Assembly: GCA_965223425.1 (NCBI GenBank)
Contig: OZ245003.1
Location: 1,408,001 to 1,472,000 of the forward strand
Reading direction: 5' to 3'
From: Nitrosopumilus sp.
GTDB lineage: Archaea; Thermoproteota; Nitrososphaeria; Nitrososphaerales; Nitrosopumilaceae
DNA: 64,000 nt
The position numbers and the translations under genes are program-made. The notes under the pieces are model-generated. The model was given only the letters and a program-made list of their open reading frames with translations, searched no databases and was not told the origin of the DNA. This document shows, piece after piece, positions 12,922-47,467 of the stretch (its first letter is position 1; every line of letters begins with the position of its first letter).

Positions 12922-13186
12922 GTCTGATGAACCTTTTCTAATTATTCCCGTTTTAGTTAATTCTGATTCACTTGGTGGTTTTATGGAATAAATTTTATCA
13001 AAACAAATTATTTTATGCCTAAATTCTACATTCTCTTCAAATAACTTGACAGAACCTTGATAGAATAATTCTTAAACACAATTAGAGATACGGCACTAAA
13101 ATTGAACTTCAAACTTGTTAAACATCCACATCATCCATATTTCAGCTCTCGGGGATTACGCAGAACCTGTGAAGGACATTCTTATT

Positions 13187-35885: not shown

Positions 35886-36758
35886 TTATTGGTATTTTTT
35901 ATTGTCTCTTAGATATTTTGAGATAAACCATTTTACAAATACAAAGTCATTGTTTTTCAAATAAGAGAACTCTAGTTTTTTGATGTATGTCTGTTTTTCT
36001 TTTGGTTTTATATTCATCATCGGATATTTGTTCTTGTGCAAAATTAACAGCGTTAGCATTCTTCCCATTCTTCCGTTTCCATCAATAAAGGGATGAATTA
36101 ATTCAAATCTTCTATGAAATTTTGCAGATAATTGTACTGGATTAATCTTTGTCTTGATTTTGTTGTACCATTTCACTAATTCTTCAATGTCTGAAATTAC
36201 ATCAGCCCATAAGGAATACTCTGTTTTTCCCAGATATGGGGCTACATCTTCTCTCCTGAAACTTCCTGCATTATTTATGTCGGTTTTTTCAAACAATATT
36301 CCATGCCAGTCAAGAATCAATTTTTTAGAAATATCCTTATCTGTTTTTAGCATGCCATCGAAAATTATTGCCATCTGTTCGGCCTCTACAATGTCTTCAG
36401 TGGAGGTATCTTTAGGAGACAGGTGATCCTCCAATAATTTCCTTGTTTGACCCAGCGTCATAGTACTCCCTTCAATTCTTTGTGTGCTGTATACATGACT
36501 GATTTTGAAACCATGATGCTCTGATTTTAGAATTTTTGGATCAGTTTTTTTCGAAAATTCCAAGTATTTTTTTTTAATTTTTTCCAGTAACGGATTTTTT
36601 TCTTCTTGGAAAATTTCTTCTTCAAATTCTTTTTTTATCTGTTCCATATTGTTAGGTATTTTTTTGCCCAGATATCGTTCATATTGTTTTATGCTGGTTT
36701 TATGAGTTAGATAATGGTACTCTCTGTTGCCTTTAGTTCGTTTAGTTACTGATGCCAT
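35886..36758 (-). CDS. Fic-domain protein with internal inhibitory helix
   Basis: HPFIDGNGRMGR active site; STQRIEG inhibitory motif. Confidence 0.92.
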   Translation of the reverse strand: MASVTKRTKGNREYHYLTHKTSIKQYERYLGKKIPNNMEQIKKEFEEEIFQEEKNPLLEKIKKKYLEFSKKTDPKILKSEHHGFKISHVYSTQRIEGSTMTLGQTRKLLEDHLSPKDTSTEDIVEAEQMAIIFDGMLKTDKDISKKLILDWHGILFEKTDINNAGSFRREDVAPYLGKTEYSLWADVISDIEELVKWYNKIKTKINPVQLSAKFHRRFELIHPFIDGNGRMGRMLTLLILHKNKYPMMNIKPKEKQTYIKKLEFSYLKNNDFVFVKWFISKYLRDNKKYQ

Positions 36759-39540: not shown

Positions 39541-40790
39541 GTTCTAATTCGCTCAATTCTAATTTTCTGAGGTATGTTCTTTGAAACCTTTTCGACGATT
39601 ATCCTTAGCTCCTCCACTTCCACTTTGTCTCCCTCCTGCGGTATGTCTTGTAACCTTTCATGGAGTAGCCCGTTAAGTGACGCATAGTCATCCCCTTCCG
39701 GAATTTTAGTTTTGAAAATTTCATTAATTGTGTCGATTTCAATATCCCCGTTTGTGATTATTGTGTCTTGATCAATTTTCTCATACCCTGTTGATCTGGT
39801 CAGATCTGTTTCATCTTCAATCTCTCCAACTATCTCCTCAAGCAGGTCTTCTAAAGTAACAAGCCCTTCAACGCCTCCGTGCTCATCGACAACAATTGCC
39901 ATGTGTGTTTTTCTTCCCTTCATTTCCTTTAGCAAGGAACTGATCATTTTTTCTTGAGATGCAAACACGGGTTTTCTTGCAATCTGTTCAAGATTCACCA
40001 TCCTGTTGTCCTTCTCTAATTCCTTAAGAACATCTCTGGCGTGAATGAATCCCACAATATCATCGCCAGTGTCTCCAAAAATCGGGATTCTTGAATGCCC
40101 ACTCTGATTAATTTGAGGCAAGGCCTCAAAAAGCAACATTTTAGAATTTAATGTAAACATTTTGGTTCTAGGTGTCATTACTGAACGAATTACTGTGTCA
40201 TCAAACTTCAATGCTCCATGGACAAGCTCCATCTCTTCTTTTTCAATGGCCTTCTCTTCTAATCCTTGATCAATAACCCCTTTGATTTCATCCTCGGTAA
40301 TTGGGGGAGGCGTGTATCTGCTGCCAGTTATTTTTACAACCCCTTTGGTAATAATTTCAAAAAATTTTACGACTGGGTATAATGCATAGCTGAATGCTAG
40401 TAAGACAGGTGCGTATCTTAATGCAATTTTTGTAGAGTTTGCATTGCAGTATGTCTTTGGGGTAATTTCACCAAATACCAGGATTAGAAATGTCATAATC
40501 CCAATTGCAATGCCTAAACCGTCATTTCCAAATAATCTGATTGCCACACTCGTTGCAAGCGCTGAAGCCCCCACGTTTACAAGGTTGTTCCCAAGATTTA
40601 CACTTGACATCATCCAACTCGGATTTGTTTTTAGCTTGTACAGTGCTTTTGAGCCTTTTTGCCCTTGATTAAAAAGTTGCACTACCTTTGATTTTCTAAC
40701 ATTGACTAAAGCCACTTCCAAACCACTAAAGAATCCAGACAGGCCAATCAGGACGGCCAAAGCTGCAATTTCAATCCATAAATCTACCAT
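39537..40790 (-). CDS. CNNM/DUF21-CBS-CorC (hemolysin-family) protein
   Basis: FFSGLEVAL, GEITPK, VVDEHGG, EEIVGEIEDE. Confidence 0.93.
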   Translation of the reverse strand: MVDLWIEIAALAVLIGLSGFFSGLEVALVNVRKSKVVQLFNQGQKGSKALYKLKTNPSWMMSSVNLGNNLVNVGASALATSVAIRLFGNDGLGIAIGIMTFLILVFGEITPKTYCNANSTKIALRYAPVLLAFSYALYPVVKFFEIITKGVVKITGSRYTPPPITEDEIKGVIDQGLEEKAIEKEEMELVHGALKFDDTVIRSVMTPRTKMFTLNSKMLLFEALPQINQSGHSRIPIFGDTGDDIVGFIHARDVLKELEKDNRMVNLEQIARKPVFASQEKMISSLLKEMKGRKTHMAIVVDEHGGVEGLVTLEDLLEEIVGEIEDETDLTRSTGYEKIDQDTIITNGDIEIDTINEIFKTKIPEGDDYASLNGLLHERLQDIPQEGDKVEVEELRIIVEKVSKNIPQKIRIERIRT

Positions 40791-40942: not shown

Positions 40943-42280
40943 CTAATTTTTTGGAGGCCTTGCAAATCTGTTTTTAGGATCACGGTGATAATCTACAGGA
41001 AGCATGGCGTCTTTTTGCCTGCCCGTAAGAATTCCTACTACTGTGTCATCCCTTTTGATTATCTCCCCATCAATCAATTTTTTAATTCCGACAACTGTTG
41101 CCCCTGATGCCATTTCGCAGTCAAACCCGTTAAGGCCAACTGCAGACATGCCATCTAACATTTCAGAGTCTGAGACTGTAGTTACTACACCGTCAGTGAA
41201 CTCTAATGCGCGCAGTCCTTTCAAAATGTTTGCGGGTCTGCCAATTTGGATTGCAGTGGCTTTAGTTTTTGGTCGCAATCCCTCCTTATCTAAATGATCA
41301 TAATATCTGGCAATTAATTCAGTGTTTGGATTTCCTTTATTCCATCTGAGCTCTTCATCTTCAAATTTGCCGTTGTACAAATCAGATAACGTACTTGCTC
41401 CTTCGGAATTTATGACTGCAATTCTTGGAATTTTCTTGATCCAGCCCCATTCATGTAGTTCCATCAACGCTTTTCCGCAACTGGAGGTGTTTCCTAAAGC
41501 ACCTCCTGGGTATACGATCCAGTCAGGAGACTCCCAATTAAGATACTCTAATGCTCTAAATAGAATTGTTTTTTGTCCCTCAATTCTAAATGGGTTGATA
41601 GAGTTTACAGTGTATCCATTGTGGTTTTGTGCATCATCTAGTGATTGTTTTAGCGCATCATCAAAATTTCCGTCAATTTCTACAATTTGTGCTCCAAATT
41701 GATATGCTTGGCTGAGTTTTCCTGGCGCAATCTGTCCTGCTGGTATGTATACATCGCAGTTTATTCCTTCATTTGCAGCAAACATTCCGGCAGAAGCTGA
41801 TGTGTTTCCCGTAGATGCACAAACAATTTTTTTTGCGCCTACCATCTTGGCATGAGTTACAGCAGTTGCCATTCCGTTATCCTTGAAGGAACCGCTCGGA
41901 TTGTATCCTTCAGGCTGTAACCACAGCGTATCATTTGATATTCCTATGAGTTCTGCAGCTTTTGACATTTGGTATGGCTTTGACTGCCTTCCCTCTGCAC
42001 CATCAAGGGATACTAAATATTTTGAACATTCTTCTACGTTATTGGTATCTATCTGACAAAAATTCAGTAGTTCTCTAAATCTCCAAACTCCGCTTTCATT
42101 GAAAATACTGCCTTGGGGATTTCGTCTTTTGTAAAATACTTCTTTGAGTCCATCAGAAAGCCTATTCTTATATTTGACATCTAGCAAATGTTCTTTCTCA
42201 CATTGCACGTTTGCACTGTCTATTGGATATTCTAAACCACAGTTAGGATCAATGCATTTTAGATATGCGTCACCTTGCAT
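40943..42280 (-). CDS. thrC: Threonine synthase
   Basis: NPSGSFKD, ASTGNT, RIEGQKT. Confidence 0.93.
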   Translation of the reverse strand: MQGDAYLKCIDPNCGLEYPIDSANVQCEKEHLLDVKYKNRLSDGLKEVFYKRRNPQGSIFNESGVWRFRELLNFCQIDTNNVEECSKYLVSLDGAEGRQSKPYQMSKAAELIGISNDTLWLQPEGYNPSGSFKDNGMATAVTHAKMVGAKKIVCASTGNTSASAGMFAANEGINCDVYIPAGQIAPGKLSQAYQFGAQIVEIDGNFDDALKQSLDDAQNHNGYTVNSINPFRIEGQKTILFRALEYLNWESPDWIVYPGGALGNTSSCGKALMELHEWGWIKKIPRIAVINSEGASTLSDLYNGKFEDEELRWNKGNPNTELIARYYDHLDKEGLRPKTKATAIQIGRPANILKGLRALEFTDGVVTTVSDSEMLDGMSAVGLNGFDCEMASGATVVGIKKLIDGEIIKRDDTVVGILTGRQKDAMLPVDYHRDPKNRFARPPKN

Positions 42281-42381
42281 TGCTCTTTGAGAAGATGGCT
42301 GATAATTTAAAGCAAATGTGTAAATTTTACACAAGGCAAGCTAATTTCCCAAACTTTAGATTAGATAACTGTTTTCACTAA

Positions 42382-43392
42382 CTCAGCTAAGCGAAATCTG
42401 CCCCAAGCCTGAGATCATGTATAGGCGGTTTGGGCTGGCGTATGGGAAGCGATTCCAGCTGCACCTTAAACGTCAGCATGGTCATGACACTCTGCCTTTC
42501 AGTGCCATCAGAAAGCAGTGCCCTGACAATTATCCATTCATTGTACAATACCAGAGAATGGTAAAAGCACAGCATCTGCGATTCCATGTCTGTGATTCGT
42601 GTCTTGGCCCTGCACTCCTCGATTTTGCCGTACTCGTCTTTATCCACCATCTTTTGGCATAGACCTCGATCCTGACTGCGGGATGGTTTGTTGCAAACCC
42701 GATGTGCCTCCTTCTGGGTCATCAGAGTCTTTGGCCTTTTTTCTGTCAGCTGTTATCATAGAATATTTGGCAGCAGAACCCAGGTTGTTTTCAATTACGT
42801 TCCTTGAGATCTTTTCTCTTTTCTCCTGTGCAAACTTTTGCAGGACTGCCACTACGTTGTACGTGTTCCTGCACGGCATCAGAAACTTTACGTTGTTTTC
42901 CTGTAGCCTGCTTATCACACCAACTGAGAAGAACTCACAGTCAAGCAACGCCAAGTGTATCCTGATGCACCCACTTTTGTCATGGTTTTGGGGACAGCAT
43001 CCACGTAATCAGGCATGATGCGGCAAGAACGATACGCATCTTGTTCAATTCCCTTGATTGCCGATGCAATCCACCTGTCAAATGGGGTACTGCAGTGTTT
43101 GTGCCTTTGCGCATCTGCATACGGAGGAATCCATAGCGGCAGCCTTTAGCATGCTGCAGTTCAGATCATCTGTTCCAAACGTTGCGTTGTACCTGTCTGA
43201 TGTGTTGGCGCATGCAAGCATGTTTTTTGTGCCGTCTGCAACATCTTCATATATGCGTGGATTGTTTAACAGTTCGCGGCCCTGTCTGGTTTTTTATCTC
43301 AACAACAAAAATCAGGGGGTCGTACCCTCATTGATCTGCTTGCATTTTGTAGCCAATTTGGCCTGAATTGGAGCAGATTTCGCTTAGCTGAG
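42382..43392 (-). mobile_element. ISH3-like element, internally decayed, perfect 19-bp TIRs
   Basis: CTCAGCTAAGCGAAATCTG at both ends; fragments LLDCEFFS..FLMPC. Confidence 0.85.
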
Positions 43393-43396
43393 TTTC

Positions 43397-44691
43397 TAGG
43401 TTCTGTGAAGTTATCGGGAGTTAACCCCTATAACTCGACTTTGACATATCGACTATTCGGATTGCCAATGGTGTGCAGGATTCCGTCATCGCCGGCTCAA
43501 AAGTGCCGGACTGCGCTTCACATATGTCATCTCTACTGCCCCTAAACCTAGGGGGCGGCTTGCGTGATATGTTGTTCATGGCAGCGACAATATCCCTGTC
43601 CATAAACAAACCGCAATTATTACACGACAGTTTACGATGCTGTTGCATGTCCTCTTGGAGTCTCTTTCCGCATTGCGGACACTGCGTGCTCGTGTTTCTT
43701 GGGTCTACTGTCTCGACTGGCGGGAGCCCGACCCGTTGGGCTTTGTATTCTATTTGGCGTTGCAGCTCGTAGAATTGCCACCCGTTCAATCTGCGCCTGT
43801 ACTTGTTGCCCTGACCATTTCCTTTTTTGTAGAGTTTTCTAATTCCTTTCAGGTTTTCTAGAACGATTGCAGCCTTTTCTTTGACGGCATTATCCACAAT
43901 ATCCTTTGATATTCTGTGGATGCATTGTTTTGTTCTATTGGTCATTCTTCTCTGTTTTTCCTTCCAGAACTGGTTTTTCTTCCTGCGGTCATTTCTGTGG
44001 AAGCCTGCCCTGGCGTGTACTGTGTTCTCCTTTATGGATAACAGCTTGTTTGTCTTGTAGACTGTCACCCCTTCCTCGCTCCCACACGTCACATTTCTTA
44101 GGTTTCTGTCTATTCCAACTTTCTTGGTGCACTCTATCTCTTGTACTTTTTTTGAAACACAAAGACTGATGTTGAGGGCAGTCAGTGAAAACGAGCGCAC
44201 CGTCAGGGCGGGATCAGACAGGATTTTTTGGGCGTGATCGTTGAGTAAAATGTTGATTGGGTTATGTTTCTTGTATGGGATTGTTAGTAGTGCACCGTTG
44301 TGTTTTATGCCGTAACAGTTTGTCATAAAGGGATTTTTGACTATTGGGTCTCTTATTCTGACACCTCGTTTGACTGATTGTTTTCTGTTTGATAATGTGC
44401 CTGCAGCTCTTGATATTGCACATATCTTGTATGACGATAAAATGTCATAGTTACGTAATTCGTGATAACATAACATGGACAGCCTCTTCATATTGTGAGT
44501 GTCTTCTTTCAACCCTATCTTGATGCAATGATTGGCCATCTTTGTGAATGTAGCCGCCATATCCATTAGGTCAGAGTTCGGCGCATATTTCTGTGATATT
44601 GGCTTTATCGCCTTCAGCGAATATCTTGCGGTTTGGAGGCTTGTACATTTTGGGAATTGACATGTAACTCCCGATAACTTCACAGAACCTA
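43397..44691 (-). mobile_element. TnpB-only element bounded by perfect 27-bp TIRs (IS6-like ends)
   Basis: TAGGTTCTGTGAAGTTATCGGGAGTTA at 43397-43423 and its exact reverse complement at 44665-44691. Confidence 0.9.
43421..44617 (-). CDS. tnpB: TnpB RNA-guided endonuclease (IS605 OrfB / Cas12f-like); start uncertain
   Basis: RuvC-I GIDRN, RuvC-II IVLENL, CPQC/CNNC Zn finger, RuvC-III DRDIVAAMN. Confidence 0.92.
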   Translation of the reverse strand: MKAIKPISQKYAPNSDLMDMAATFTKMANHCIKIGLKEDTHNMKRLSMLCYHELRNYDILSSYKICAISRAAGTLSNRKQSVKRGVRIRDPIVKNPFMTNCYGIKHNGALLTIPYKKHNPINILLNDHAQKILSDPALTVRSFSLTALNISLCVSKKVQEIECTKKVGIDRNLRNVTCGSEEGVTVYKTNKLLSIKENTVHARAGFHRNDRRKKNQFWKEKQRRMTNRTKQCIHRISKDIVDNAVKEKAAIVLENLKGIRKLYKKGNGQGNKYRRRLNGWQFYELQRQIEYKAQRVGLPPVETVDPRNTSTQCPQCGKRLQEDMQQHRKLSCNNCGLFMDRDIVAAMNNISRKPPPRFRGSRDDICEAQSGTFEPAMTESCTPLAIRIVDMSKSSYRG

Positions 44692-44737
44692 ACATAATAA
44701 ATTACAAAAACATATTTTCAGCAAAAACCAGACATAC

Positions 44738-44842
44738 TTGTTAATTGGCTAGATTGGGAAATACGTTGAATACCCAACGTTTTGTTTCAAATAATTAAAC
44801 GGTTTGATGTTTGAGGCAAAACTGCTGGATGCCAATTAACAA
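44738..44842. mobile_element. Putative 105-bp MITE
   Basis: 12-bp perfect IR TTGTTAATTGGC/GCCAATTAACAA with TAC on both flanks. Confidence 0.5.
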
Positions 44843-44879
44843 TACAAACTCTTTTTTGACCAAATAAAATAGAAAAAGG

Positions 44880-45140
44880 ATGGGCAGAACTATTTTTGTT
44901 AAAGAAATTATCACCATACTAAAAGAGCCAAAGCTTTGTCCCACTTGTAAAAAAGACGATAGGCTAGAAAAAGATGTTATCCGAGAGCAAAGATCAGGCG
45001 GGAAAACAATTCTTTGTTCTAGATGTGAGGCGCTAATTGTAATTACAAATCATAATTTACGAAATGTTGAACTCTCACCAAAAAAAGACGACGTTGTAAT
45101 GCTAAAAGAGCCCCATTTGGTTAGAAAAGTAACGTACTAG
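44880..45140 (+). CDS. Conserved Zn-ribbon hypothetical protein
   Basis: CPTC...CSRC. Confidence 0.8.
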   Translation: MGRTIFVKEIITILKEPKLCPTCKKDDRLEKDVIREQRSGGKTILCSRCEALIVITNHNLRNVELSPKKDDVVMLKEPHLVRKVTY

Positions 45141-45382
45141 TCATCAGATTTTTCTAACAGTTTTTTGATAACGTGGCTTCGAACATTTGCAACCTCCCAA
45201 TCTCGAAGATTTTCATTTTTGCATTCCTCTTTAATTATAAGACCTGCCAAGCCAGCACTCCAGATATGGCGCCTTGGATCATAAACCTCGATTATTTTTC
45301 CATGCTTTCTGATTTTGATTCCACCATGGCATCTTTCAACCACTTGTAAGGCAACTTTTTGATAGACTTTTTCAAAATTAAC
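45137..45382 (-). CDS. Conserved thaumarchaeal hypothetical protein
   Basis: ORF from MVNFEKVY, convergent with the previous gene. Confidence 0.7.
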   Translation of the reverse strand, partial: VNFEKVYQKVALQVVERCHGGIKIRKHGKIIEVYDPRRHIWSAGLAGLIIKEECKNENLRDWEVANVRSHVIKKLLEKSDD

Positions 45383-45574: not shown

Positions 45575-46104
45575 TCGCAACTGTGTTCAAACTACCTTGC
45601 GCACCACCTTCCACTTGTCGCGTATCCATTCTCTGCGGTTCCACTGTTTGAGTCCGGTGGCATCGGCCACCAGGGTTACGTGTCAGAATGCATCATGAAC
45701 GTATATGGCGTTGCCGTGAATGCTGATGTCGAGCTTCTTCATTCTTCTGCACAGTGTGGAATAGTGCGGTGAGTCATGTCCTTCGAGCATCTTATCTGTC
45801 ATCCCAGACAGCTGCCTGAATGGAACATCAAGGGCAGTTCTCAGTGCAGTTATCGTCATGAGCATGGTGTCTACATACTAGAACAGGGCTCACTCCTTGC
45901 CGCAGTTGACCTGCTTTACCTCGCAGCTCCAGTCCGGATTATGCTGTACTACCAGCTCTGCACCTGGCCGTATGTACTTTGCATTATCGGTCAATACCTA
46001 GAGCATGCTGTCATGATCTAAAGCTTTTTCGGTCAGAAACATGTGTGTTCGTTGGTCAGTTTAAACTGCGTGGTAGATTTTAGGTGTGTTGTGCAACAAG
46101 CTAG
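45575..46104 (-). pseudogene. IS5-family (IS903-like) transposase remnant
   Basis: PFRQLSG..PHYSTLCRR and DATGLK..EWIRDKW in broken frames; end CTTGTTGCACAAC. Confidence 0.75.
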
Positions 46105-46122
46105 TACCCAGTGTGGTTTTTG

Positions 46123-46193
46123 TGGACTTGTCGGGAATCGAACCCGAACCTACGAGTTTTCAGTTCATAATGCTACCATTACACTACAAGCCC
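46123..46193 (-). tRNA. Atypical tRNA-Phe(GAA)-like gene, possibly a pseudo-tRNA
   Basis: Acceptor GGGCTTG/CAAGTCC, T-arm TCGGG-TTCGATT-CCCGA, loop CTGAAAA, A-C mismatch in the anticodon stem. Confidence 0.7.
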
Positions 46194-46503: not shown

Positions 46504-46884
46504 CTATGGCTCCAACGGGCACGTCACGGTCACGTCCTGCGGCATGAACAGCACCCTCATGCCAGAACCGAACATGTCCCTGCACGTCTCTTCCATGTCG
46601 TCTCCAATCATGGACAGGTATATCGGATCCTGATGGGCCGCGGCACTGCTTTCATCGAAGCTCCCTTTCGCGTTGCTCGCGCCACGCGCATCGCCGGTGC
46701 TACCTGATGGTGATGCGAGGCCCACGTACAGGTTGTCAAAATACACAGATCGATAATAGGGATCCTGCGTACGGTCATATATGCCTAGCGTAACGTCTGC
46801 ATAATCATCCGTAACAATTCGGATTTCTGGAGTGCCGTGCCTAAATTGGATGTAAAATCTGTGATTTTGATGTGTTTTACGCAT
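46504..46884 (-). CDS. Hypothetical ORF or C-terminal gene fragment
   Basis: Higher-GC open frame directly after the 46891 stop. Confidence 0.35.
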   Translation of the reverse strand: MRKTHQNHRFYIQFRHGTPEIRIVTDDYADVTLGIYDRTQDPYYRSVYFDNLYVGLASPSGSTGDARGASNAKGSFDESSAAAHQDPIYLSMIGDDMEETCRDMFGSGMRVLFMPQDVTVTCPLEP

Positions 46885-47467
46885 GCAACTTCAGAAACTC
46901 GAACTGTTACTATTTTGTACAGTACCACAATCATTACCTTCACAATAAACAGCAAAATCAGTAGGAGTGTGAGCTGTTTCTTCCAAAGTTACAAAAGGAA
47001 TATCATAACTAAATTGATCATTGAAAAATTTATGGGTTTTTACAATTCCAGCAAAGTCTGAATATAATCCATAAAATGAAGCTGGTGCATTTATAGAACC
47101 AACATTAACGATGCTTTGAGAAAAATTATCTCTAGTATCATCAACATAATGATATACAGAACCATCAGGACGCATCGTAGAAACATCATCATTTTCTAGC
47201 AAAACACCAATACGCAGATCAACAAATGTGTTATCATCAGGATCCTCATTTACTATTTGCAATTGAAAAGTACCCGATGAATCAGTCAGATCACAAACTT
47301 CTGTTCGACCGTTTTTTAAAATTTGAGAGGTGCCGTTAGAGAGGTTTTTATCATAAGCACATACACGGGCGCTATCCATAGGAATAAAAGAAGAATCAGT
47401 ATTGATATAATATTTACCATAAGCAAAAATTTGGGCAGGTGCATCAGATGCACCACTAGAAGATCTA

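Follow-up and report, generated by a model that had tools for sequence, protein, structure and literature searches.

The role generally accepted for the RNA-guided nuclease TnpB is that it rescues IS605 and IS607 elements that have been excised without a scar. A sequence-only reading of the locus described here took TnpB to travel normally in such elements. That premise is dated, as reports of TnpBs within inverted-end DDE transposons go back to 2023: Altae-Tran et al. describe the DDE-associated TnpB branches DDE-1 to DDE-6 in transposons with inverted terminal repeats (PMC10691335). The one DDE partner named in the available part of that text is IS630 (for DDE-6), and the available part of a 2026 review lists ISL2, IS630 and IS1031 (PMC13565253). 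IS6 is not named as a TnpB partner in these parts of either source, the comparison with the branches being one of text. According to the same review, DDE transposons gain little from rescue after excision, and this would account for the rarity of the pairing in prokaryotes (PMC13565253). The ends of IS6-family elements have GG tips and a cTGTt motif; in the available sections of the family's review one member with a passenger gene is known, and TnpB is not mentioned (PMC7986276). Our literature search found no published description of a TnpB in an IS6-type element, and no paper on TnpB and Nitrosopumilus.

In the window (the whole 64,000-nucleotide stretch of Nitrosopumilus sp. DNA that was analysed), positions 43399-44689 constitute an element of 1291 bp with perfect 25-nt inverted ends, the sole gene of which is an intact tnpB. 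The inverted repeat is complementary at 27/27 positions when 43397-43423 is compared with 44665-44691, and the locus had accordingly been described as a 1295-bp unit with 27-bp repeats. However, the alignment of the genome's copies ends at GG...CC, corresponding to 43399-44689 in the window, so that the TA outside each end is host flank and the repeat proper measures 25 nt. This 25-nt core occurs twice in the window (0 occurrences expected, 100 shuffles). Both tips are of the GGTTCTGT type, with the GG tip and cTGTt motif of the IS6 consensus as given in the part of the review available (PMC7986276), in agreement with the original assignment of the terminus. It was also correctly read that tnpB is alone in the unit, the only long ORF being 43421..44695 on the minus strand (424 aa), and that its stop codon lies in the inner end of the repeat, where it occupies the innermost three positions of the right-side copy (43421-43423). 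The features of the locus, in the direction of tnpB, are as follows.

44698..44700, minus strand: TAM-like trinucleotide, TTA in tnpB sense, directly 5' of the left-side 8-bp target copy
44690..44697, minus strand: left-side copy of the 8-bp target, reading TTATGTTA in tnpB sense; the element copy at C1:1325308-1326599 now has its twin at the right end
44665..44689, minus strand: left-end 25-nt terminal inverted repeat, IS6-type, GGTTCTGT..., from repeat comparison and copy alignment
43421..44617, minus strand: tnpB, 398 codons counted from the start position conserved in relatives, followed by the stop codon 43421-43423; identified by profiles and structure matches
43399..43559, minus strand: predicted omegaRNA scaffold over the last ~50 tnpB codons, from RNAalifold and covariation
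43399..43423, minus strand: terminal inverted repeat of the right end, 25 nt, with the predicted 3' arm of the terminal hairpin in its inner half
43391-43398, minus strand: right-side target copy, TAGAAACT in tnpB sense, the first 8 nt of the predicted guide flank and originally the partner copy's
43379..43398, minus strand: predicted guide-coding flank, from the position of the TAM-like motif and known TnpB geometry as far as described in the accessible part of 10.1101/2023.03.14.532601; an assumed length of ~16-20 nt, in analogy to known TnpBs

Ten full copies of the element (85-100% DNA identity) are present in the genome, besides diverged and broken ones, and the outer tips of the repeats are the copy boundaries in all copies. 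Four of the ten are flanked by a perfect 8-bp duplication and one by a duplication with one mismatch, two form a swapped pair, and three have none. The window copy is one of the swapped pair: it and the inverted copy at C1:1325308-1326599 each bear the other's flanks. This exchange is the reason why the window copy has no 8-bp duplication; the earlier caveat that only TA is found on each side is thus peculiar to this copy. To judge from the flanking sequences, the swap implies an inversion of ~125 kb and would fit either homologous recombination or intramolecular replicative transposition. The family also illustrates how IS copies have, on this reading, turned round ~125 kb of this chromosome.

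All 14 PF07282 matches on the chromosome belong to the IS6-ended TnpB family, and IS6-type ends were not found around the 3 TnpB genes of the second contig. Another Nitrosopumilus genome has the end pair at 35/40 loci, 20 of these 35 with perfect duplications and 2 with one mismatch; genome G149 was covered over the first 1.2 of its 2.21 Mb. The same anatomy is kept in relatives at 31-91% protein identity from Nitrosopumilus-type genomes and metagenomes. At least 27/80 metagenome loci have the ends (one miscall dropped), a lower bound because the tip-anchored end finder misses ends with indels. At three loci (L051, L053 and L044) the same ends and 8-bp duplications accompany proteins of 31-40% identity, so that among the homologs collected with their flanks both characters are retained down to 31%. 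The refuting scenario named at the outset was that a MITE had once received an insertion and that hairpin ends of the IS605 type lay within its repeats; it is excluded by this multi-copy family of uniform anatomy.

The protein matches PF07282 (71.1 bits, cut-off 26.3) and the NCBIfam model guided_TnpB, NF040570 (115.2 bits, cut-off 100), while the NCBIfam IS200/IS607 TnpB models give weak partial matches. The catalytic and zinc-finger residues claimed from the sequence are confirmed: RuvC residues D170, E254 and D342 and zinc-finger residues C313, C316, C332 and C335 are invariant in an alignment of 8 sequences (31-71% identity), and alignment to Cas12f chains agrees on the triad and the zinc finger. 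The top Foldseek matches of the structure model are all Cas12f, TnpB or Fanzor chains (E down to 5e-12), the model itself being only moderate (mean pLDDT 65.8; TM ~0.35), with disorder predicted for C-terminal residues 349-398. The ATG at 44695 lies outside the element. The frame is open up to the element tip, with a GTG at 44681-44683, and in relatives the start is a TTG at the position equivalent to 44617 of the window, where the window subfamily has CTG; the suggestion of a native non-ATG start near 44617 is therefore correct. With ~400 aa, a defined scaffold and a TAM predicted to be short, the family provides a compact TnpB of archaeal origin.

Neither a Y1 transposase (PF01797) nor a serine transposase (PF00239) was found in this 99.99% complete genome. 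Together with the 25-nt inverted ends and the target sequences of 8 bp in direct repeat, this separates the unit from IS200/IS605 and IS607 elements, and the direct repeats are those of IS6/IS26. For the PF13610 transposases of the genome IS6 is the best NCBIfam match, over the full profile; they score 111-122 bits against NF033587, just below the equivalog cut-off of 125. At locus L124, an IS6 element of 1970 bp, flanked by a perfect duplication, has its outer 18 nt in common with a TnpB subfamily of the same genome, and at C1:793017 the end beside a defective IS6 transposase equals the end of a TnpB subfamily of this genome at 24/25 positions. An intact IS6 transposase with ends identical to those of the window subfamily was not found in this genome; the closest ends adjoin one deleted and one truncated transposase gene, which leaves mobility at the present day putative. 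The proposal of a non-autonomous, DDE-mobilised element with an RNA-guided nuclease is supported by the 8-bp duplications in many copies and relatives, by the outer ends shared with IS6-family transposase elements of the same genomes, by the lack of Y1 and serine transposases in the genome, and by an architecture kept to 31% protein identity. These comparisons support the unit being a non-autonomous IS6-family DDE transposon, its sole cargo a TnpB gene with its predicted guide RNA. The nuclease had also been proposed to recognise the ends of a 13-kb array. This proposal finds no support: near 13.0-13.8 kb there are scattered IS6-like ends (window positions 13056, 13710 and 13776), and no tandem array was found in the window (TRF, score >=200).

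Comparative folding shows a conserved RNA of predicted structure to be encoded by the element in its 3' ~160 nt, the last stem of this RNA making use of the inner half of the right-end repeat. RNAalifold predicts 27 pairs in the scaffold, 16 of them with compensatory changes, and pairing holds in 98% of cells, a level reached by 0/500 shuffles, compared with 27-37% when partners are slid. The compensatory changes support a putative guide-RNA scaffold that overlaps the 3' end of tnpB, with the following elements.

43559-43552/43542-43535, minus strand: predicted scaffold helix 1
43529-43518/43452-43442, minus strand: predicted scaffold helix 2
43509-43505/43496-43492, minus strand: predicted scaffold helix 3
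43485-43482/43461-43458, minus strand: predicted scaffold helix 4
~43440-43407, minus strand: predicted scaffold terminal hairpin, with the last 6-8 nt left single-stranded

The terminal stem covaries with the end sequence between subfamilies. For 43000-45200 no Rfam family was found at a permissive threshold, the sole match being a chance lncRNA (E 0.05; 20.6 bits, where the cut-off is 80). Contigs of one sponge metatranscriptome run (X1) cover 43399-43803 and parts of the gene, with transcript ends, strand and level not readable and DNA carry-over possible. One X1 contig joins the right-end tip to a different flank; as evidence for RNA these contigs are all uninformative.

The insertion sites bear a one-sided mark. 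In the orientation of tnpB, the 3 nt before the left duplication read T/A-T-G/A (WTR) in 41/49 insertions of the close family, compared with 4/49 on the mirrored side (Fisher 1e-14) and a genome background of 7.9%. Among elements with an intact duplication, WTR is found on the left side in 30/31 and on the other side in 2/31; the two tallies share many insertions and are not independent. Short derivatives that have the RNA region and no full tnpB display the motif in 4/4 cases. In IS6-type elements without TnpB it occurs on 5/24 sides (12 elements, possibly moved by a different transposase subfamily), a lower share than the ~52% that one WTR-bearing side in each element would predict (p=0.002). 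The information is confined to the three positions, the adjoining ones being near background, and the insertions sit in AT-rich DNA. The motif cannot serve as a start codon, being out of frame with tnpB and meeting a stop within the repeat. A TATA/BRE promoter is unlikely, as only three positions are involved, half of the motifs end in G, and the RNA-only derivatives retain it. WTR looks like a TAM; the TAMs of studied TnpBs are typically 4-5 nt long, and the motif here is shorter. From this resemblance it follows that the guide is probably read through the right end into the flank. Of the two guide sources first proposed, read-through is thus favoured by an orientation-specific, TAM-like motif beside the duplication, and the element end itself is argued against, as discussed below.

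We suggest the following cycle, to which we assign a probability of roughly 70% as a whole: an IS6-mobilised element, a guide read from the flank, cutting of the empty site by TnpB, and persistence of motif-bearing insertions. An IS6-type transposase acting in trans would move the element. Transcription passing the right end would yield a guide composed of the 8-bp duplication and the next bases of the flank, and TnpB with this guide would recognise the empty site, namely 5'-T/A-T-G/A, the 8 bp and the flank. It would cut there, and repair from the occupied chromosome copy would install or restore the element. At an occupied locus the right-end tip (..AACC) stands in place of the motif, and therefore the element should not target itself. 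Insertions that happen to land with the motif upstream and in the right orientation would be those that persist; the insertion sites suggest that the nuclease may in this way help new insertions to persist. A simple two-copy homing advantage seems too weak for a motif frequency of ~85-97%, and strong drive or long-term retention is therefore assumed.

The same motif might instead reflect the transposition machinery's own preference for certain targets, or that of nearby promoter-like AT-rich DNA, with TnpB as mere cargo that has no role in persistence. The AT-rich surroundings of the insertions would agree with this, and the control without TnpB is small and, at 5/24 sides, above the genome background of 7.9%. 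Yet the two ends are identical over 25 nt and the motif is on the tnpB-upstream side in 41/49 cases as opposed to 4/49 on the other; a symmetric transpososome should give a symmetric preference, so that the one-sidedness counts against a preference of this kind. So do the confinement of information to three positions with neighbours near background, the lack of the motif on both sides of IS6-type elements without the RNA region (5/24 against ~52%, p=0.002), its retention in 4/4 RNA-only derivatives, and the fact that it is no start codon; we consider a pure target preference unlikely. TnpB with its scaffold RNA might also bind the motif and position the IS6 transpososome, so that strand transfer takes place directly 3' of it, a physical coupling and not a selection after insertion. 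This appears improbable; if true, a DDE family without a known targeting factor would have arrived at an equivalent of CRISPR-associated transposons, primitive and independent of a guide.

Three further explanations concern the nuclease and its vehicle. TnpB might be under domestication, the 8-nt duplication match at the left junction leading to binding without cutting and hence to regulation of the element or its neighbours. Every copy with an intact duplication does present motif plus 8 matching nt at this junction, and TnpB-derived repressors exist, according to the partial sources at hand. Eight nt are, however, short for stable binding. The catalytic residues are invariant and the element is multi-copy and mobile with no single fixed locus, all of which makes a regulator very improbable. 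That the right-end repeat itself is the guide, and TnpB recognises the ends of the element family, has the merit that the end would occupy the guide position if the RNA stopped at the element tip, and that in the window subfamily ATG or ATA precedes that strand of the left end which reads as the right end does. Against this, the inner half of the end is paired in the stem whose sequence changes along with that of the end, WTR is found before the left-end copy in no more than 4/29 distinct end pairs, and a flank motif 8 bp outside the element is left unexplained, so that this guide source seems extremely improbable. As for an ordinary IS200/IS605-type (IS1341) TnpB element inserted by chance in a small palindromic MITE, TnpB-only elements are common and the weak partial NCBIfam matches to IS200/IS607 TnpBs point that way, but the copy boundaries are the outer repeat tips throughout, the stop codon lies within the repeat, 8-bp duplications surround the whole unit, and the architecture is kept to 31% identity in a family whose genome here lacks Y1 and serine transposases; its probability is negligible.

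The family is a natural case, with dozens of independent insertions, of a DDE-type element that carries TnpB and leaves target duplications. One end of the transposon also serves in the predicted guide-RNA scaffold, and a TAM-like mark is seen on one side of the insertion sites. The benefit of an RNA-guided nuclease to a duplication-leaving transposon thereby becomes a testable question, as does retention or drive in ammonia-oxidising archaea.

Compared with the TnpB-omegaRNA systems of IS200/IS605 (ISDra2; Geobacillus ISGst), the protein belongs to the same family and has its RuvC triad and zinc finger intact. As there, the predicted scaffold overlaps the 3' end of tnpB and abuts the right end, with a short T-rich motif on the left and a variable flank on the right. 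The proposed role, cutting of the empty site followed by repair from the occupied copy, is likewise that described in the accessible part of 10.1101/2023.03.14.532601. In contrast, IS605 elements are moved by Y1 and have no such ends or duplication, whereas the unit described here has 25-nt inverted ends and 8-bp duplications in a genome without Y1; between its motif and the element stands the 8-bp duplication, which would form the first part of the guide. It resembles the DDE-1 to DDE-6 branches in having TnpB within an inverted-repeat transposon and the tnpB 3' end near the transposon end; the available text on these branches also includes solo TnpBs between the same ends, thought to be mobilised in trans (PMC10691335). 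With IS6/IS26 and their MITEs it has in common the GG tips, cTGTt, 8-bp direct target repeats and non-autonomous derivatives, again as given in the accessible sections (PMC7986276), and the transposases of the same genomes match PF13610 and NF033587. Typical IS6/IS26 elements differ in being 700-890 bp long with a transposase only, according to those sections (PMC7986276), and the transposases here, at ~340 aa, are long and have zinc-binding segments at the N terminus. Fanzor1 of eukaryotic DDE transposons also combines a TnpB-type nuclease with inverted ends and target duplications, in the parts of the sources available (PMC13565253; PMC3627910). For Fanzor the 5' duplication is read as part of the TAM in the accessible part of the review (PMC13565253), whereas here the motif lies outside the duplication, which would itself be in the putative guide, and the host is an archaeon.

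The window contains a TnpB gene (tnpB) between inverted repeats. Read in the tnpB orientation, the element has its left end, on the 5' side of the gene, near 44689 and its right end near 43399. Its parts, in window coordinates, are as follows.

43397-43423 and 44665-44691: inverted repeat, complementary at 27/27 positions
43399-44689: element proper, GG...CC, 1291 bp
43421..44695, minus strand: the single long ORF between the repeat arms
43559 to 43442, minus strand: predicted RNA helices, inside the last ~50 codons of tnpB

The 25-nt core of the repeat occurs exactly twice, against 0 occurrences expected from 100 shuffles. The ORF matches PF07282 at 71.1 bits (cut-off 26.3) and the NCBIfam model guided_TnpB at 115.2 bits (cut-off 100), and the solved structures nearest to its protein are Cas12f and TnpB chains; in a Foldseek search with a protein model of moderate quality (pLDDT 65.8), every top match was Cas12f, TnpB or Fanzor. 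An alignment of 8 family members (31-71% identity) shows no variation at RuvC residues D170, E254 and D342 or at the four cysteines of the zinc finger, and the innermost three bases of the right-end repeat form the stop codon. The observation made in the sequence-only reading (27/27 inverted repeat, tnpB, RuvC triad, zinc finger, stop codon in the repeat) is thereby confirmed, with two refinements. All 27 positions of the repeat do match, but the outer TA on each side is flank, since the alignment of the genome's copies ends at 43399 and 44689, and the repeat of the element itself is 25 nt long. The ATG at 44695 likewise lies in the flank, outside the element; the non-ATG start suspected near 44617 agrees with relatives, which use TTG at the matching position (CTG in the window subfamily).

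The host genome (2.64 Mb, 2 contigs, 99.99% complete) holds 10 full-length copies with 85-100% DNA identity, as well as 2 more diverged copies, 2 interrupted ones and several fragments, and all 14 PF07282 matches on the chromosome belong to the family of the window element. Four of the full copies are flanked by a perfect 8-bp direct repeat, one by a repeat with one mismatch and three by none; the other two, the window copy and an inverted copy at C1:1325308-1326599 on the main contig, form a swapped pair. In the tnpB orientation the left flank of the window copy is TTATGTTA and its right flank TAGAAACT; in its partner the two are exchanged. Each of the two therefore formerly had a matching duplication, and the intervening ~125 kb have since been inverted, which removes the earlier caveat that the element has no 8-bp target duplication. 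The swap implies that the inverted segment would comprise window positions 1-43398 and C1:1326600-1408000, and it is explicable either by recombination between the copies or by intramolecular replicative transposition. Perfect duplications are also found at three more TnpB-bearing copies and at one 344-bp derivative in the host genome.

The surroundings of the window element are intergenic and repeat-rich, adjoining a gene for a PLP-dependent enzyme (40943-42334). Directly left of the element in window coordinates is a repeated sequence (42387-43366), whose spurious-looking ORFs recur in near-identical form elsewhere in the genome (C1:2472488-2473002) beside an IS630-like 369-aa transposase ORF. 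To the right lie a 60-aa fragment of another DDE transposase (45683-45865, minus strand; PF13737 at 28.0 bits, cut-off 28.1) and a tRNA-Phe gene (46122-46193, minus strand). The small second contig, C2 (123 kb; 47% G+C versus 41% for C1), carries three more TnpB-type genes (36385-36588, 40223-40420 and 46805-47008), near which no IS6-type ends were found; these may come from an extrachromosomal element or another organism.

Matches at E<=1e-30 occur in 13 of 151 genomes of the same genus, and the record titles of relatives include Nitrosopumilus sp., Nitrosopumilales and Thaumarchaeota. Among the 40 loci listed, 36 of which come from one genome, the end pair is present in 35 and the remaining 5 are partial copies; in these 35 the 8-bp duplication is perfect at 20 loci, has a single mismatch at 2 and at least four mismatches at 13. 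Three loci at 31-40% identity (L051, L053 and L044, from the same and another family of the order) have GGTTCTGT-type ends and perfect 8-bp duplications, so that both features are kept down to this level of divergence. In metagenome loci at 36-65% identity, a tip-anchored finder detected ends in 28 of 80 (one a miscall), a count limited by the many contigs that stop too early and by ends with indels, which the finder misses. An IS605 element nested in a MITE is excluded, because the same ends and 8-bp duplications recur in many copies and in distant homologs.

IS6/IS26 elements are defined, in a family review (PMC7986276), by GG tips, a cTGTt motif, inverted ends of 15-20 bp and 8-bp direct repeats. 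Profile searches of the host genome for a Y1 transposase (PF01797) or a serine recombinase (PF00239) found neither. The genome has several PF13610 (IS240/IS6) transposases of a long archaeal form, two of their genes looking intact; of the NCBIfam models IS6 fits them best, along its full length, at 111-122 bits, below the cut-off of 125. One 2983-bp IS6-type element (C1:915423-918405, partly covered by locus L032), with the 8-bp duplication CAATAGAG, encodes an apparently intact 345-aa IS6-family transposase and, as passenger, a 446-aa ORF judged by eye to be DNA methyltransferase-like with a C-terminal HNH motif. The ends nearest to those of the TnpB elements adjoin one internally deleted and one truncated transposase gene in the host genome, and the end at C1:793017 agrees with a TnpB subfamily of that genome at 24/25 positions. 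In a copy-rich Nitrosopumilus relative (G149), a 1970-bp element (L124) has a 25/25 end pair, a perfect duplication and a PF13610 gene, and its outer 18 nt are those of a TnpB subfamily found in that genome. The search for a cognate IS6 transposase was partly successful: PF13610 genes lie between or beside matching ends, but no intact one with ends identical to those of the window subfamily was found in the host genome. IS6-type transposases acting in trans are thus the putative movers, and the core interpretation of a non-autonomous, DDE-mobilised element that carries TnpB is supported by the 8-bp duplications, the shared ends and the lack of Y1 and serine transposases.

Other IS6-type sequences were observed in passing. 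Two cargo-sized units (6.85 kb, C1:1201385-1208237; 6.67 kb, G149:C1:917093-923763), each enclosed by IS6-type ends, come from different genomes and have nearly equal 8-bp duplications, CATTATTC and CATTATTT, which could stem from a single inherited insertion or from a site preference. The 8-bp duplication GTAAATTG (in one copy GTAAATCG) flanks two different TnpB-less IS6-type elements (C1:256390-260474 and 1860917-1862710), perhaps through a repeated target or by chance. A 13-kb array had been reported for the window, presumably on account of IS6-like ends clustered at 13056, 13710 and 13776 (one on the minus strand, two on the plus); only these three ends were seen there, and no tandem array was found in the window.

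For the guide RNA, the last 200-270 nt of 17 diverged copies were aligned. RNAalifold predicts 4 helices with 27 pairs, 16 of which have compensatory double changes; 98% of cells pair, versus 27-37% when the partners are slid by 1-3 columns, and 0/500 shuffles matched the observed pairing or covariation score. The end of tnpB that holds the helices encodes a tail that is disordered in the protein model. Downstream of them, single-sequence folds across subfamilies give a terminal hairpin in most of the 17 copies, its 3' arm being the inner half of the right-end repeat. Subfamilies with a divergent repeat have corresponding changes in the upstream arm, so that the transposon end is also part of the scaffold. 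The last 6-8 nt (..CAGAACC) are unpaired in the folds, and no hairpin partner was seen on reading the left end.

When all insertions were oriented by tnpB, a TAM-like motif, WTR (T/A, T, G/A), became apparent directly 5' of the left duplication, with T at -2 in 41/46 and G or A at -1 in 43/46; neither the duplication itself nor the next nine positions outward depart much from background. In the close family, taken at 58% identity and above and after removal of a miscalled locus, of duplicate flanks and of one copy whose flank is shared with another, WTR is found at 41/49 left sides versus 4/49 mirrored right sides (Fisher 1e-14), its genome-wide frequency being 7.9%, and in distant homologs at 10/25 versus 2/25. 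A second tally, which has many insertions in common with the first, took only elements with a duplication of at most one mismatch, from the host genome, the initial 1.2 Mb of the copy-rich relative and a number of IS6 loci. Here WTR lies on the left in 30/31 elements with TnpB similarity versus 2/31 on the other side, and on 5/24 sides of 12 IS6-type elements without such similarity. Four short derivatives (344-497 bp) have kept the RNA region and not the gene:

C1:1199933-1200276, host genome
G149:C1:143852-144348, copy-rich relative
G149:C1:803351-803738, copy-rich relative
G149:C1:870887-871264, copy-rich relative

Each has both ends, the scaffold and a tnpB stub, is flanked by a separate 8-bp duplication and shows the motif on the side where it is expected (4/4), and to judge by sequence they look like mobilised stand-alone guide-RNA elements.

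Since both ends consist of the same 25 nt, the transposase does not readily account for a mark that lies on one side only and follows the polarity of tnpB. A guide beginning at the right tip would require its TAM exactly where the motif lies: the order at the empty site is motif, 8 bp and flank, and at the occupied site the tip (..AACC) replaces the motif. The other option raised in the sequence-only reading, that the right end itself is the guide, finds no support, WTR preceding the left-end copy in only 4/29 distinct end pairs.

Alongside the anatomy, duplications, shared ends, RNA structure and flank motif, which are observed, we propose a mechanism in which an IS6-type DDE transposase would mobilise the element in trans and the guide would be the 8-bp duplication with its adjoining flank. 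TnpB might then cut unoccupied copies of the site, with repair from the occupied copy, as established for IS605-type elements (10.1101/2023.03.14.532601), and insertions with the motif upstream would for that reason be preferentially retained. The very high motif frequency needs a strong effect, for which the candidate sources are multiple copies of the chromosome, exchange of DNA among cells, or protection from loss over the long term. Direct coupling of TnpB to target choice fits less well than preferential retention, as the motif is missing from elements that have no RNA region.

Six DDE-transposase-associated branches of TnpB were described by Altae-Tran et al. 2023 (PMC10691335); each has inverted terminal repeats, IS630 is the partner named for branch DDE-6, and solo TnpBs between the same ends are presumed there to be mobilised in trans. 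A 2026 review gives ISL2, IS630 and IS1031 as DDE partners (PMC13565253). TnpB is not mentioned in the accessible part of the IS6 family review, which includes one member with a passenger gene (PMC7986276), and our literature search produced no publication about TnpB from IS6-type elements or from Nitrosopumilus. The mechanism proposed here lends itself readily to testing and is of relevance to research on OMEGA systems and transposons. TnpB in a DDE transposon is, as a general kind, already published, and the clade of the window element may itself be one of the branches of Altae-Tran et al. (PMC10691335); the assignment to the IS6 type, the double role of the end and the motif-duplication-guide geometry supported by ~50 insertions appear to be new detail.
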